Below, piece after piece: positions 15,097-34,030 of a stretch of 64,000 bases of DNA. The DNA comes from an uncultured Acidobacteriota bacterium. GTDB lineage: Bacteria; Acidobacteriota; Vicinamibacteria; Vicinamibacterales; 2-12-FULL-66-21. The stretch is taken from NCBI GenBank assembly GCA_963810305.1, contig CAWEMY010000019.1:140603-204602 (forward strand). Direction: 5' to 3'. Under the pieces are notes generated by a model, which saw nothing but the letters and a program-made list of their open reading frames with translations, was not told the DNA's origin and made no database searches. The number at the start of each line of letters is the position of its first letter. The stretch's first letter is position 1. Both the position numbers and the translations under genes were made by a program.

Positions 15097-15173
15097 CGCG
15101 GGGTGGAGCAGTCCGGTAGCTCGTTGGGCTCATAACCCAAAGGTCGCAGGTTCAAATCCTGCCCCCGCAACCA
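15097..15173 (+). tRNA. initiator tRNA-fMet (anticodon CAT), CCA encoded
   Basis: 77 nt 'CGCGGGGTGGAGCAG...GGGCTCATAACCC...GGTTCAAATCC...CCCCGCAACCA'. Has the C1:A72 mismatch and the GGG/CCC anticodon stem, and is near-identical in layout to E. coli tRNA-fMet. Confidence 0.95.
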
Positions 15174-15624
15174 ATTGAACCGGCACGAGGAGGTCGCCTG
15201 TATCGGGCGACCTTTTCGTTTCTTGGGCGGCAGTCAGCATCGCAGCCAGATTTCCTCTCAGCTCGATCCGGAGCTGGCCCTTCTCCGGAGTCAGGACGAT
15301 CGAATCGATCAGTCCACGGAGCATCGCTGAGGCCTCCAGGCGGGTGTCTTCGCGCTGGAGCGCCTCGGCGAGTTTCTCGACTTTCGAGCGGTAGAGGTCG
15401 GCCATGGTCGGGTGCAGGAGAGGCGCTGGTTCCTCCGCGGTAGAAAGCCTCACCAGCAGCGCTTCCTTGCGAGCCTGCAGCGCGTCCTTCTCCACCTTCA
15501 GTTCTGGAAGCGCGAATCCGGCTTTGATCGCCTCAAGGACCTTCTGAATGTCGCGCTTGACCCGCTCCAGTTCGCGCTTCGCACCGCTCAGACCTGCCCG
15601 TCGCTCCATGCGGGGTGTTGACAT
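15130..15624 (-). pseudogene. C-terminal remnant of a large serine recombinase
   Basis: 'LHPTMADLYRSKVEKLAEAL...MLRGLIDSIVLTPEKGQLRIELRGNLAAML' matches the C-terminal coiled-coil tail of large serine recombinases. No catalytic or recombinase domain is present upstream. The 3' end runs antisense into the tRNA. Confidence 0.7.
15191..15222 (+). terminator. hairpin plus T-tract after the tRNA
   Basis: Stem aggtcgcc / ggcgacct with a 7-nt loop, followed by 'ttttcgttt'. Confidence 0.5.
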
Positions 15625-15699
15625 GTTCGATCGTGTCGGCCGCTTCGGTCGCGCCCGGCTTTGCGCATCGCGCGGATGGGGGCGAAGCTGGAGTGGGGA

Positions 15700-31427: not shown

Positions 31428-33981
31428 ATGAGCGGAGATCGTCAAATGAAGTGGCTCGAAGGGTTCTCGCTCGATCTCAAGCTCGGGGGCCGGATGCTCG
31501 TGAAGTATCCGGGCCTGACGATTGTCGGCGGCCTGGCGATGGCGTTCGCGATCTGCGTCGGCGCCGTCATCTTCGCGGTCCTGACGATGTTGGTCCATCC
31601 CACGCTGCCGCTCTCCGACGGCGAGCGCATCGTCCAGATCCGGAACTGGGACGTCGCCGCGAATGGTCCCGAGCCGCGCGCGCTGCACGACTTCATCGTC
31701 TGGCGCGGCGCGCTGCGGTCGGTCACGGAGCTCGGCGCCTGGCGGGACGTCACCCGCAACCTGATCGTCGCCGCCGGTAACGCGCGTCCCGTCGAGGTCG
31801 CGGAGATGACCGCCTCCGGCTTTCGCATCGCCGATGGTGCGCCGCTCCTCGGCCGCGTCCTCGTGGCCGCCGACGAGCAGGCAGGTGCGCCATCCGTGGC
31901 CGTGCTCGGGTACGAGGTGTGGCGAACGCGCTTCGGGAGCGACCCCAATGTGCTCGGCCGCACCGTGCAGCTGGGCAACGATTACGCGACGGTGGTCGGC
32001 GTGATGCGCGAAGGCTTCGCGTTCCCCGTCTCGCACGAGCTCTGGGTGCCGTTGCGAACCGACATCCTGGATCAGGCGCCGCGTTCGGGTCCCGCCATCA
32101 CGATCTTCGGCGTGCTCGCACCCGGCGCGACTCTCGAGACGGCGCAGGCCGAGTTGACGACGCTCGGCCGCCGTGCGGCCATCGAGCGGCCTGCCACGCA
32201 CGAACATCTGCAGCCGCGTGTGACGCCTTACGCGAAGCTGTTCTTCTCGGCGCCGTCTGGCGAGGACCTCGGGATCTTCTTCTCGATCTACTTCTTCGCG
32301 GTCATGCTGCTCGTGCTCGTCTGCGGCAACGTCGCCCTTCTCATGTTCGCGCGCGCCGCGACGCGCGAGAGCGAGCTCGTCGTGCGCACCGCCCTCGGAG
32401 CGAGTCGCGGCCGGATCGTCGTGCAGTTGTTCGCCGAGGCGCTCGTGCTCGGAGGCGTGGCGGCGGCGGTCGGCCTCGTCGCCGCCGATTTCGCACTCCG
32501 CAACTGGGGCCTTGAATTTCTCGAGGTGAACCTGGGCCGGCTCCCCTTCTGGTTCGACCTCCGCCTGTCGCCAGCGACGGTGCTGTTCGCCATCGGGCTC
32601 ACCGTGCTCGGCTCGGCGATCGCGGGGGTGATGCCTGCGCTCAAGGTCACGCGCGGTATGGGATCCCGCCTGAAGCAGGCCGCGGCCGGAGCCGGCGGAC
32701 TGCAGTTCGGCGGTGTCTGGACCGCGGTGATCGTCGTGCAGGTCGCGGTCACGGTGGCATTTCCCGCGGTCGTCTACGTCGAGCAGTGGGAATTGCGTCA
32801 CATCCAGACGTTCGAGGCCGGATTCGCCTCCGAGGAGTTTCTGGCCGTGCGGATCGAGATGGATGCTCCGAATGTCCCGGTAGCAAACGCCGATTCGGCT
32901 CGGGTCGCCGAGCGCGCTGCGTTCGCGTCCAGCATCGAGGAGCTGCGCCGGCGCGTTGCAGCGGAGCCAGGGGTCGCCGGCGTCACCTTCGTGGACCGCC
33001 TTCCCCGTACCCCCCGCCCCGAGTACCGACATCGAGCTTTCCGATGACTCGACAATCACCGCCCAGTCGGCCCGCGTGGCGAGCGCGGATCCACGACCGC
33101 CGCTCCGCGAGGCGACTGTTGCGGGCATCGAGCCGTCGTACTTCGATGTGCTGGAGACTCCGATTCTCGCCGGTCGCGCGTTCAATGCCGCCGATCTCGC
33201 CCCCGGTTCGAGCGTCGCGATTGTCGATCAGGGCTTCGTCGACCAGGTGCTGCAGGGGCGGAATCCCATCGGCCAGCAGGTGCGATTCGTGCAGGATCCG
33301 GACGATGCGGCCGCCAAGCGCCCCAATCCCTGGTTCGAGGTCGTCGGGGTCGTGAAGGAGCTCGGGATGGGCGCACCCACGCGAAAGGGACGCGCGGCAG
33401 GTTTCTACGTTCCTGCCACCCCGGACCGATTCGACCAGGTTTACATGATGGTGCACGTGCGGGGCGATCCGATGACGCTCGGCCCACAGCTTCGCGAGAT
33501 CGCCGCCGCGGTGGATCCGACGCTTCGGCTCTCGGAGCTGCAGCGGGTGAACGAGGTCACGAACAATCTCCTGTGGGTCGTCGGGCTATGGCTGCGAGTC
33601 ACGATCGTGATGACCGCCGTCGCCTTGCTGCTCTCACTGGCGGGGATCTACGCGGTGCTGTCGTTCATCGTGGCGCGACGGACGCGCGAGATCGGGATCC
33701 GCGTGGCCCTGGGTGCCAGCCGGCGGCGCGTCGTCGCCGCCATCTTCCGCCGTCCGCTGTCACAGGTGGGACTCGGCGTCCTTGTCGGCGCCGCGCTCAT
33801 CGCCGCTGCGGGCAGCGTCGAAACCGAGATGCCTGGGCTATCCGCTGGGTTCTCGCTCGAGGATGTCGCGATGCTCCTTGCCTACGCCACCCTCATGCTG
33901 GGCGTCTGCCTCCTCGCGTGCGTCGTCCCGACGCGCCGCGCCCTCGGCGTGGAGCCGACCGTCGCGCTGCGGGTGGATTAG
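31428..33981 (+). pseudogene. ADOP-family duplicated FtsX/MacB-type permease, frame broken once
   Basis: Two overlapping ORFs (31428-33047 in frame 0, 32956-33981 in frame +1) together give the ~850-aa two-FtsX-domain architecture. The break maps to the C-rich tract at 33003-33020. Confidence 0.8.
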
Positions 33982-34002
33982 CCCGCACCCAATTCTTCGG
34001 TA

Positions 34003-34030
34003 GAGGCCGCCTTCAGGCGGCCTTTACGTT
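34003..34030 (+). terminator. GC hairpin (same sequence as 26240)
   Basis: gaggccgcc-ttca-ggcggcct followed by 'ttacgttt', immediately after the ADOP stop. Confidence 0.5.

Follow-up and report, generated by a model that had tools for sequence, protein, structure and literature searches.

Remnants of large serine recombinase genes mark probable tandem islands at an initiator tRNA-fMet gene of an uncultured Vicinamibacterales bacterium

Integration at tRNA 3′ ends is usually the work of tyrosine integrases, and the tandem islands that they build at tRNA genes reuse the tRNA 3′ end, displace the older element, leave repeats of the tRNA end with an integrase gene beside the tRNA, and decay. Serine recombinases have also been described at tRNA-Met genes. 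The C089B-type nickel islands of Mesorhizobium insert at a tRNA-Met 3′ end with a 14-bp repeat and a serine recombinase; they span 53 to 172 kb and carry mobilization genes and nickel-tolerance cargo (PMC10990125). The Paracoccus aminophilus phage phiPam-6 is an inducible, functional prophage with a serine recombinase; it is located at a tRNA-Met gene, and a 17-bp repeat matching the tRNA 3′ end stands on both sides of it (PMC3925955). Some Mesorhizobium integrative and mobilizable elements and one integrative and conjugative element carry serine recombinases as well (PMC8627217). Here, we analyze a 64,000-nucleotide stretch of DNA, called the window, from an uncultured Acidobacteriota bacterium of the order Vicinamibacterales (GenBank assembly GCA_963810305.1, contig CAWEMY010000019.1, positions 140,603 to 204,602, forward strand). 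The window contains an initiator tRNA-fMet gene followed by two islands, each headed by a repeat of the tRNA end, a hairpin, and the truncated C-terminal part of a large serine recombinase (LSR) gene. Successive LSR integrations at the tRNA-fMet followed by decay very probably gave rise to both.

The C089B-type islands resemble the window in having a serine recombinase at tRNA-Met, and their 14-bp repeat has the length of the TGC+CCCCGCAACCA block described below. They differ in their alphaproteobacterial host and far larger size, and the paper gives neither the repeat sequence nor a gene/tRNA overlap, so the LSR clade is compared with them by description only. phiPam-6 likewise combines a serine recombinase, a tRNA-Met, and a tRNA-end repeat, but it is a functional prophage, and its repeat, CCCTCCTCCGCTACCAT, differs from the tRNA-fMet end found here, which points to a different tRNA and probably a different LSR lineage. 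The LSRs of phiC31, Bxb1, TnpX, and CcrAB type share with the clade the Resolvase, Recombinase, and Zn-ribbon/coiled-coil architecture, the gene position at the element edge by the att site, and att sites that look like short, imperfect dyads. The clade differs from them in targeting the 3′ end of an initiator tRNA, in an attP that appears to lie within its own coding sequence, in a predicted exchange of the protein tail, and in a terminator that is antisense within the coding sequence; the clade is known from sequence, and the window holds C-terminal remnants only. Tandem tyrosine-integrase islands differ in that strand exchange runs across a longer identical core, whereas LSRs make a 2-bp staggered cut at the dyad center and use no arm-type sites. 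The SSV1-type integrases of archaeal viruses have attP inside the int gene, and integration splits the tyrosine integrase gene in two. The clade resembles them in having an att site in the recombinase open reading frame (ORF), so that integration would alter the product; in the clade, only the extreme C-terminal tail of a serine recombinase would be swapped, and the ORF is complete in both states. The first-pass annotation of this DNA regarded serine recombinases at tRNA 3′ ends as uncommon compared with tyrosine integrases. This holds for that comparison only; the LSR family itself is abundant (3888 representative clusters at E ≤ 1e-3), and islands at tRNA-Met are published (PMC10990125, PMC3925955). 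Full-text literature searches yielded no paper pairing a serine recombinase with tRNA-fMet or initiator tRNA, and none of the titles and abstracts listed by a search on LSRs, tRNA, integration sites, and overlap describes the gene/tRNA/terminator overlap or the tail swap of the clade. The window feature itself is a further example of known serine-recombinase islands at tRNA-Met and introduces no new principle; the overlap and the tail swap may be a small new point at the family level.

The single tRNA gene in the window is an initiator tRNA-Met(CAT) at 15097 to 15173 on the plus strand (ARAGORN; Rfam 66.9 bits). It has the initiator marks of a C1/A72 mismatch and a GGG/CCC anticodon stem (three G-C pairs beside the anticodon loop). 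The 12-mer CCCCGCAACCAA has exact copies at 15163 and 26219 only, and these head junction 1 (J1) and junction 2 (J2), whose parts are as follows.

15054 to 15083, plus strand: promoter-like site TTGACG-18-TACGAT with TG, just 5′ of the tRNA; a consensus match only, in a region kept in the left-flank relatives L030 to L032
15097 to 15173, plus strand: initiator tRNA-fMet (CAT), the attB-bearing gene and left limit of the variable region
15130 to 15624, minus strand: LSR remnant 1, a 164-aa ORF with ATG, corresponding to residues 380 to 543 of a 543-aa LSR (coiled-coil region and C-terminal tail)
15163 to 15174, plus strand: direct repeat copy 1, CCCCGCAACCAA, at the tRNA 3′ end; putative crossover-containing attL core of island 1
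15175 to 15222, plus strand: P′ arm ATTGAACCGGCAC... and predicted terminator hairpin with T-rich tail for the tRNA, antisense within the recombinase coding sequence (codes ...ETKRSPDTGDL...)
26196 to 26218, plus strand: degenerate P arm of island 1, ggttcacgggatccggttgtgcg, matching over ~12 nt the conserved P arms of L026, L028, and L031 with a 1-nt deletion
26219 to 26230, plus strand: direct repeat copy 2, CCCCGCAACCAA; putative attR core of island 1 and former attL core of island 2
26231 to 26271, plus strand: spacer, hairpin 2 (26239 to 26262), and T-rich tail, downstream of the convergent gene at 25120 to 26196
26272 to 26415, minus strand: LSR remnant 2, ~48 codons, frameshifted relative to the tail, with stops upstream

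The first-pass annotation had described J1 and J2 as one module with the same order of parts, sharing 12 identical nucleotides of the tRNA 3′ end and a 38-nt block. These features were reproduced, the 12-mer as an exact match and the block (15229 to 15266 and 26272 to 26309) at 35 of 38 positions. What it had called a degenerate T-arm at J2 is reread, by comparison with displaced junctions in other genomes, as the degenerate P arm of island 1. In full, the J1-J2 repeat covers 115 nt at 74% identity, and the hairpin sequences differ. A related module, junction 3 (J3), lies near 34.0 kb; the J2-J3 repeat covers 51 nt at 82% identity, the spacer and hairpin are identical at 28 of 28 positions, and no chance match is expected for the 21-nt core common to the two hairpins. 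The 2-mismatch copy of the 12-mer at J3 (33981) is by itself at chance level (5.8 expected). The J1 hairpin folds at −26.7 kcal/mol (z −5.3), the J3 hairpin at −23.6 kcal/mol, and the J2 hairpin, the best terminator-like site in a scan of 14.9 to 34.2 kb, at −23.2 kcal/mol. All three have z about −5 and consist of a GC-rich stem-loop followed by a T-rich tract, the features of an intrinsic (Rho-independent) terminator. The J1 spacer ATTGAACCGGCACGAG is identical in loci L004 and L028/L029, and the next stem differs by one base. A search of the window for a fourth junction (repeat plus P-arm consensus) found none. A 2-mismatch repeat at 56268 was rejected because it lies inside an ORF (54637 to 56550) with succinate dehydrogenase/fumarate reductase flavoprotein domains.

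The two minus-strand peptides are C-terminal remnants of serine recombinases, as the first-pass annotation had proposed. Their homology was established by tblastn against plasmid records and fetched loci; a Pfam scan of remnant 1 gave no match. Remnant 1 aligns without a frameshift with residues 380 to 543 of the LSR of the Vicinamibacterales locus L026 (59% identity, E 2e-50) and with a Paracoccus "recombinase family protein" (E 1e-31). In the plasmid records, its full length aligns with the final ~165 residues of ~550-aa alphaproteobacterial "recombinase family proteins". Remnant 2 aligns with residues 474 to 511 of the L026 LSR (74% identity, E 6e-11) and corresponds to residues 467 to 518 of the Paracoccus/Haematobacter LSRs (E 3e-6). 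Both matches to bona fide LSRs are significant. The L026 LSR detected nothing else in the window by tblastn. The Resolvase catalytic domain with its nucleophilic serine is in neither remnant, confirming the earlier observation (Pfam; tblastn coverage 380 to 543 and 474 to 511 only), nor are the Recombinase (PF07508) and Zn-ribbon (PF13408) domains, as both remnants begin after the Zn ribbon. The window therefore holds LSR gene remnants and not an LSR. Remnant 1 had been thought to end at ...TAAQ. The ORF in fact crosses the hairpin, enters the tRNA gene by 44 nt, and ends ...LVAGAGFEPATFGL. Its TGA stop is the complement of the tRNA anticodon loop, and the final 14 codons and the stop overlap the tRNA; intact relatives end alike.

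The intact relatives define the architecture from which the remnants derive. A Vicinamibacterales metagenome-assembled genome (L026; GCA_049642465.1) encodes an intact 543-aa LSR (19000 to 20631) ending ...AAQNAKRSPETGDLSLQVVMVAGAGFEPATFGL. This protein and the Paracoccus LSR (L002) carry Resolvase, Recombinase, and Zn_ribbon_recom domains (PF00239 Resolvase, E 1e-24 for L026 and 2e-21 for L002), and intact clade members show an N-terminal YARYSSDNQ motif. The LSRs of L002 and Haematobacter (L003) end ...MVAG(V/T)GFEP(T/V)TFRL and overlap a convergent tRNA-Met(CAT). ARAGORN places the LSR C terminus over a convergent tRNA-Met(CAT) in L002, L003, L004, L006, L014, and L024, and in L026 the tRNA 3′ half was read directly at the locus end. 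A Bradyrhizobium plasmid copy (L001) has the same tail and tRNA 3′ half without a whole tRNA. The last 14 LSR codons (...VAGAGFEPATFGL) are the complement of the tRNA acceptor 3′ strand, T arm, and anticodon stem, with the stop codon in the anticodon loop. The acidobacterial and alphaproteobacterial intact relatives have a common layout in which the tRNA terminator is antisense inside the LSR coding region. Every intact member, whatever its phylum, has the end of the LSR gene joined to the direct repeat and tRNA. Of the junctions examined in acidobacterial and alphaproteobacterial loci, all but two continue from the direct repeat into a spacer (~10 to 30 nt), then a GC hairpin and a T-rich tail, and an 11-mer of the repeat is present at every proximal and displaced junction. 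The element would thus bring its own tRNA 3′ end and terminator, both antisense in the C-terminal codons of the recombinase. As read from these sequences, the last ~45 LSR codons appear to serve three purposes: the protein tail, the 3′ half of tRNA-fMet with its terminator on the opposite strand, and attP.

The positions of the att sites were deduced from displaced junctions in L025, L026 (10608), L028, L029, L031 (14218), and J2 of the window, where protein similarity ends right after ...VAG. A conserved P arm, ...ctgca.gta..ggttgc(g/a)(t/c)gc, lies left of the repeat at the displaced junctions. The P arm and repeat together form the dyad GGTTGCG-tgcccc-CGCAACC, and the tRNA T loop GGTTCAA and the P′ spacer TTGAACC mirror each other about the same center. 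The reconstructed attP consists of a P arm ending ...CTGCAAGTACCGCTGGTTGCACGC, then CCCCGCAACCA, then the P′ arm and hairpin. Dyads around the repeat fit serine-recombinase att sites and place the probable crossover within TGC+CCCCGCAACCA, an 11- to 14-bp block common to attP and the tRNA, in TGCCCCCGCAACCA.

Such a crossover would lie inside the LSR ORF, so integration would replace ~10 residues at the end of the protein. In the LSR frame, translation of the P arm gives another tail, VAGA(R/C)N..YLQLW..AA or ..LNLEF.W.AA, each followed by a stop. The sequences show the dual coding and both tail forms; among 267 homologues, the tRNA-encoded form occurs in 102 and the P-arm-encoded form in at least 64. 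We speculate that the change from VAGA(R/C)N..YLQLW..AA (free/attP) to VAGAGFEPATFGL (integrated) acts as a built-in sensor of integration state, an idea that we regard as rather doubtful. The swap could help set directionality, for example, through altered coiled-coil autoinhibition or partner binding, and the many truncated tails might continue to disturb recombination at this target; both proposals are speculative. An integration-dependent tail swap is a testable idea about directionality control. The clade is widespread and apparently uncharacterized, with a defined and universally conserved target (the initiator tRNA 3′ end), a compact att site in its own gene, and a built-in replacement terminator, and its LSRs might be developed into tools for site-specific integration in a wide range of bacteria.

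Most database homologues of the clade are short, with a median length of 181 aa and only 2 of 267 reaching 450 aa or more. In this excess, genuine remnants are mixed with incomplete genes from short contigs, genes split by frameshifts, and chimeric ORFs that read through from neighboring genes. Three proteins (P0283, P0318, and P0075) are chimeras in which a LysR-like or glycosidase-like N terminus runs into an LSR C-terminal remnant, which means that decayed junctions create spurious or novel fusion ORFs. Many short ORFs annotated as "site-specific DNA recombinase" or "hypothetical" beside tRNA-fMet in soil metagenomes are decay products of LSR elements. A single scan of genome contigs was dominated by the peptide pattern AGFEPATF, the complement of the tRNA; it returned mainly alphaproteobacterial and tail-only matches and no acidobacterial relatives.

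Tandem arrays and partial LSR genes recur at related loci. The L026 locus forms a series that starts at the tRNA with the intact LSR and continues outward with a ~10-kb island, a displaced junction with LSR residues 303 to 540, and a further ~45-residue fragment (449 to 494). The island of this series (L026, 10610 to 20631) is the only one seen with an intact LSR; it encodes a TIR-domain protein (ThsB-like match), a PIN toxin, and a helix-turn-helix protein, a defense- or addiction-type cargo without conjugation or phage genes. In L028 (7095 to 10855) and L029 (8893 to 10855), near-full LSR copies split by frameshifts lie back to back with a repeat after each copy. The frameshifts are at the same position in the two contigs, which come from one sample, and in L029 a tyrosine-integrase (Phage_integrase) fragment lies beside the LSR copies. 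L004 holds a near-full LSR split by a frameshift, with flanks unrelated to the window on both sides. Its positions 5805 to 6347 are 92% identical to window positions 15068 to 15612, which cover the tRNA and the LSR tail, against only 84% protein identity between the two PntB proteins. The high identity despite unrelated flanks and divergent PntB suggests that this element lineage spread horizontally, and recently, between different Vicinamibacterales. The LSR fragments in L024 and L025 begin at residues ~303 and ~272, so that truncation points vary by locus (residues 272, 303, 380, and 474 with those of the window). The window is one instance of this common pattern of tandem integration and decay.

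Smaller scars of the same type were also seen. In L003 (4464 to 4515) and L006 (~10515), a P′ arm and a P arm alone fill the interval between two tRNA-end repeats spaced 51 nt apart, an arrangement that amounts to an "empty element" scar; the doubled repeat in L003 explains why the annotated Haematobacter LSR ends with a duplicated tail, ...MVAGAGSNLHLLPEQVKMVAGTGFEPVTFRL. A second repeat copy with a typical P arm lies 1.65 kb downstream of the tRNA in L031. It bounds a mini-island (12563 to 14218) that carries a Gp49/HTH_37 (HigBA-like) pair without an LSR gene, and the bounding 35-nt repeat comprises the tRNA end and the first half of the terminator hairpin.

Comparison with relatives located both limits of the variable region. 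The left flank, consisting of genes for a SpoIIE-type phosphatase, cystathionine gamma-synthase, CutA1, DivIC, a response regulator, and tRNA-fMet, is common to L030, L031, and L032. These loci are collinear with the window from 2.7 to 15.17 kb (88, 77, and 77% nucleotide identity) and lose homology at 15173, 15174, and 15175, respectively. Each continues differently after the tRNA, with an RND pump and TetR in L030, a HigBA-like pair and a radical SAM enzyme in L031, and an ECF sigma factor, a kinase, and an ADOP permease in L032. None of the three contains an LSR remnant. The right part of the window holds the core genes pntB, 2-oxoacid:ferredoxin oxidoreductase, sdhA-like, icd, and serA. 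Five relatives, L113 to L117 (PntB 98 to 99% identical), are collinear with the window from 51 kb to 34031 and again from 33986 to 31336, at 86 to 96% nucleotide identity. Presence/absence or content polymorphism thus extends from the att site, where L030 to L032 depart, to 31336, where L113 to L117 return. The right-hand features are as follows.

31335/31336: right limit of the variable region, the exact nucleotide at which five close relatives join the window
31428 to 33981, plus strand: ADOP-family permease in two overlapping ORFs, 31428 to 33047 and 32956 to 33981 (Pfam, NCBIfam); conserved right flank

Because the five relatives join at 31335/31336, the variable segment is 15174 to 31335, ~16.2 kb, and does not reach 34.0 kb. 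The sequence from 31336, TCCTTCGACAGCGACCGG..., has no tRNA-end repeat. To the left of it, the six genomes have three unrelated sequences, namely the window's own, a beta-lactamase type, and a methyltransferase type. Since this boundary is sharp and shared, it suggests a second site-specific hotspot or a cassette boundary upstream of the ADOP gene. A resemblance by eye of 13 of 16 positions between the L030 post-tRNA sequence and the window from 31336 onward was taken as chance. The first-pass annotation had raised the possibility that the FAD-oxidoreductase and LigD genes at 34.1 kb directly follow the tRNA-fMet in relatives; this arrangement is found in none of the three left-flank relatives. 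Nor does tRNA-fMet lie beside the FAD-oxidoreductase homologue in any of 80 metagenome loci (67 to 74% amino acid identity), and these have no LigD synteny either, so they could not define the native flank. An exact sequence look-up of the FAD-oxidoreductase returned no record. Public sequencing runs gave fragmentary soil-metagenome contigs containing at most 0.15 of the sampled words, and apparent joints with sides of 21 to 44 nt were judged spurious.

The following history would account for these observations. The tRNA-fMet would be an integration hotspot for small elements of ~8 to 11 kb moved by one LSR family, with the LSR gene at the element edge and convergent on the tRNA. The element hairpin would substitute for the terminator that integration parts from the tRNA. 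At least two elements probably integrated one after the other, the older (J2, 26.2 kb) being displaced by the younger (J1, 15.17 kb). Later deletions would have stripped both LSR genes of their catalytic, recombinase, and Zn-ribbon parts and probably took out further genes of the elements. Of each LSR gene, the stretch nearest the tRNA would remain, 164 codons at J1 and ~48 at J2, which bears the tRNA 3′ end or a terminator. At J1, the tail may have been kept for the tRNA end and terminator that it carries, and at J2 for its terminator, which would serve the convergent upstream gene. Sequence and comparison show the LSR homology and the loss of domains, the overlap of gene, tRNA, and terminator, the repeats at J1 and J2, the P-arm remnant at J2, the tandem arrays in other genomes, and the breakpoints in relatives; we infer the order of events, the crossover position, the terminator function of the hairpins, and the reason for retention of the pieces. 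For J1 and J2, the reading of successive serine-recombinase integrations with later deletion, made in the first-pass annotation, gains support from the LSR homology, the tRNA overlap, the L026 series, and the left-flank breakpoints. The two findings that it had named as contrary, a lack of indel polymorphism at the junctions and a lack of serine-recombinase similarity in the remnants, were not encountered. The remnants appear to be independent in origin, because they are only 74% identical in nucleotide sequence, their hairpins differ, and remnant 1 is 92% identical to L004. It is plausible that the islands are immobilized in cis, unable to move themselves. With this history, a strain-variable segment of 16 kb is accounted for, and tRNA-fMet emerges as a hotspot for insertions in Vicinamibacterales, which are abundant yet poorly studied soil bacteria.

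Several observations weigh against this history. No relative joins the conserved left and right flanks, and no empty site was seen. Copies of the tRNA end bound island 1 (15163 and 26219), but its P arm is degenerate, and island 2, which has a proximal repeat, shows neither a second direct repeat nor a P arm at its distal end, 31335. Simple LSR integration explains neither the exact shared breakpoint at 31336 nor J3 and its counterpart in L117. The cargo lacks conjugation, replication, phage, and recombination directionality factor/excision genes (Pfam, NCBIfam), and in place of the functional integrase and mobility genes expected of a genomic island, there are only truncated LSR tails. The G+C contents of the islands (0.628 and 0.647) are close to those of the flanks (0.640 and 0.630), and the tetranucleotide distances of the islands fall within the range of the rest of the window. 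The k-mer and G+C profile proposed in the first-pass annotation thus showed no atypical composition over the islands, a result compatible with DNA exchange between related soil Acidobacteria or with a long stay in the genome. Finally, the crossover position was deduced solely from sequence symmetry, and the LSR clade is known here from sequences alone.

The LSR C-terminal fragments could instead be retained functional small proteins made of the coiled coil and tail, for example, dominant-negative inhibitors that guard the tRNA-fMet site against new integration or excision. Remnant 1 is an uninterrupted 164-codon ORF with an ATG, its ratio of nonsynonymous to synonymous substitution rates (dN/dS) against relatives is 0.15 to 0.48, and the homologues are short. 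A low dN/dS is expected if the copies diverged within working LSR genes, so it is no proof of current fragment function. The truncation points differ among loci, remnant 2 is frameshifted and only ~48 codons long, the three relatives with the same left flank lack any fragment, and many database entries are chimeric read-throughs or partial genes on short contigs. The argument that all close homologues are short and hence domesticated was largely rejected; the L026 LSR is intact at 543 aa, those of L004, L028, and L029 are near-full, and the short entries are of mixed origin. We consider functional fragments improbable. Local duplication or gene conversion of one tRNA-terminator-LSR end, with ordinary chromosomal DNA in between, is still less probable. 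The 28 of 28 identity between the J2 and J3 spacers and hairpins speaks for it, and J3, as a secondary patch in conserved DNA, indicates that module copying does happen. On the other hand, identity between J1 and J2 is just 74% across 115 nt and their hairpins differ, remnant 1 is far closer to L004 and the protein sequence of remnant 2 lies nearer to the L026 type, a P-arm-like sequence lies left of the J2 repeat as expected of an attR, and the DNA between the junctions is missing from relatives. Insertion of the islands by a tyrosine integrase at the tRNA 3′ end or by homologous replacement, with the LSR tails as passengers, is the least credible alternative; it draws on the general preference of tyrosine integrases for such sites, the Phage_integrase fragment in L029, and the sharp right boundary at 31336 without an LSR-type junction, but no tyrosine recombinase was noticed among the ORFs scanned at 15 to 34 kb, the LSR gene end is fused to the repeat and tRNA in all intact members, and the dyad GGTTGCG-tgcccc-CGCAACC is typical of serine-recombinase sites.

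J3 requires a separate explanation from that of successive integrations at J1 and J2. Its coordinates are as follows.

33987 to 34030, plus strand: J3 patch, consisting of half a direct repeat, spacer, hairpin (34003 to 34023 core), and T-rich tail; 44 nt, ~37/43 identical to J2 (alignment by eye, one gap)

The first-pass annotation had listed J3 as a third partial junction. The identity of its spacer and hairpin to J2 over 28 nt stands, but it is not an island boundary. The ADOP segment (31336 to 33986) and the FAD-oxidoreductase/LigD block (34031 onward) are contiguous in the five relatives L113 to L117. A SnoaL-like gene of ~450 nt lies between the ADOP stop and the FAD-oxidoreductase start in four of them, and the window has the 44-nt patch in its place. 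Since J3 lies inside DNA conserved in five relatives, it is a secondary event and not the distal end of island 2. In L117, SnoaL is truncated after ~75 nt and adjoins the same hairpin with an 18- to 24-nt loop insertion. This hairpin, GAGGCCGCC...GGCGGCCT, lies between the ADOP and FAD-oxidoreductase genes at ~18020 to 18120 of L117 and is orthologous to window 33987 to 34030. It was first considered inverted relative to J3, but realignment favored the same orientation with a loop insertion as simpler.

Either pseudo-site integration with deletion or microhomology-mediated patching would have replaced the SnoaL-like gene. In the first case, J3 is a genuine third integration scar, left by an LSR element that entered a pseudo-attB (GATTAGCCCGC/G...) after the ADOP gene and was then deleted with SnoaL. 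The patch begins in a CCCGC microhomology that resembles the repeat core, its spacer, hairpin, and T tail are in the normal order, and the same hairpin stands at the same place in L117 by a truncated SnoaL. Serine integrases are known to use pseudo-sites (PMC5937489). The alternative is a template-switch or gene-conversion patch from a J2-like donor. No LSR coding sequence is left past the T tail. The flanking bases at 33981 to 33986 (GCCCGC) and 34031 to 34046 (TCCGGTCTGGTAGGAT) also occur in relatives without the patch, so the extra similarity at 34031 to 34046 is native DNA. The patch thus has microhomology to the native sequence at either end, a feature equally compatible with illegitimate recombination. 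In the 1.2 Mb of fetched loci, the hairpin occurs in L117, J2, and J3 only, and three occurrences are too few to judge frequencies. A third integration scar is possible, and we rate it somewhat below an even chance.

The cargo of the two islands consists of accessory genes, listed here with the segments in which they lie.

15625 to 26195: island 1 cargo, without mobility genes and absent from all left-flank relatives (Pfam, NCBIfam)
15700 to 18267, minus strand: Ser/Thr kinase-TPR protein
18245 to 18880, minus strand: ECF sigma factor
18935 to 21151, plus strand: lipase-like protein, 738 aa
21724 to 22857, plus strand: 377-aa protein
23073 to 24239, minus strand: beta-helix protein
25120 to 26196, plus strand: CarboxypepD_reg protein
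26416 to 31335: island 2 cargo, absent from the five right-flank and three left-flank relatives (Pfam), with no recognizable distal direct repeat
26607 to 27452, minus strand: Pro-rich protein, 281 aa
27662 to 28939, minus strand: 425-aa protein
29159 to 30769, minus strand: PhoX
30770 to 31335: gene-poor tract of island 2

The 281-aa and 425-aa proteins of island 2 look secreted and are of unknown function. Beyond the right limit, the ADOP permease gene is 90 to 95% identical in nucleotide sequence to those of L113 to L116 and 86% identical to that of L117, and it is called intact, at 844 aa, in L114 and L115. The split gene in the window is either a frameshift pseudogene or a sequencing error. 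The two nonhomologous end-joining genes farther right are separate, convergent, and slightly overlapping, with a LigD primase-polymerase at 35298 to 36605 on the plus strand and an ATP-dependent DNA ligase at 36553 to 37602 on the minus strand, and this arrangement is kept in L113 to L116.

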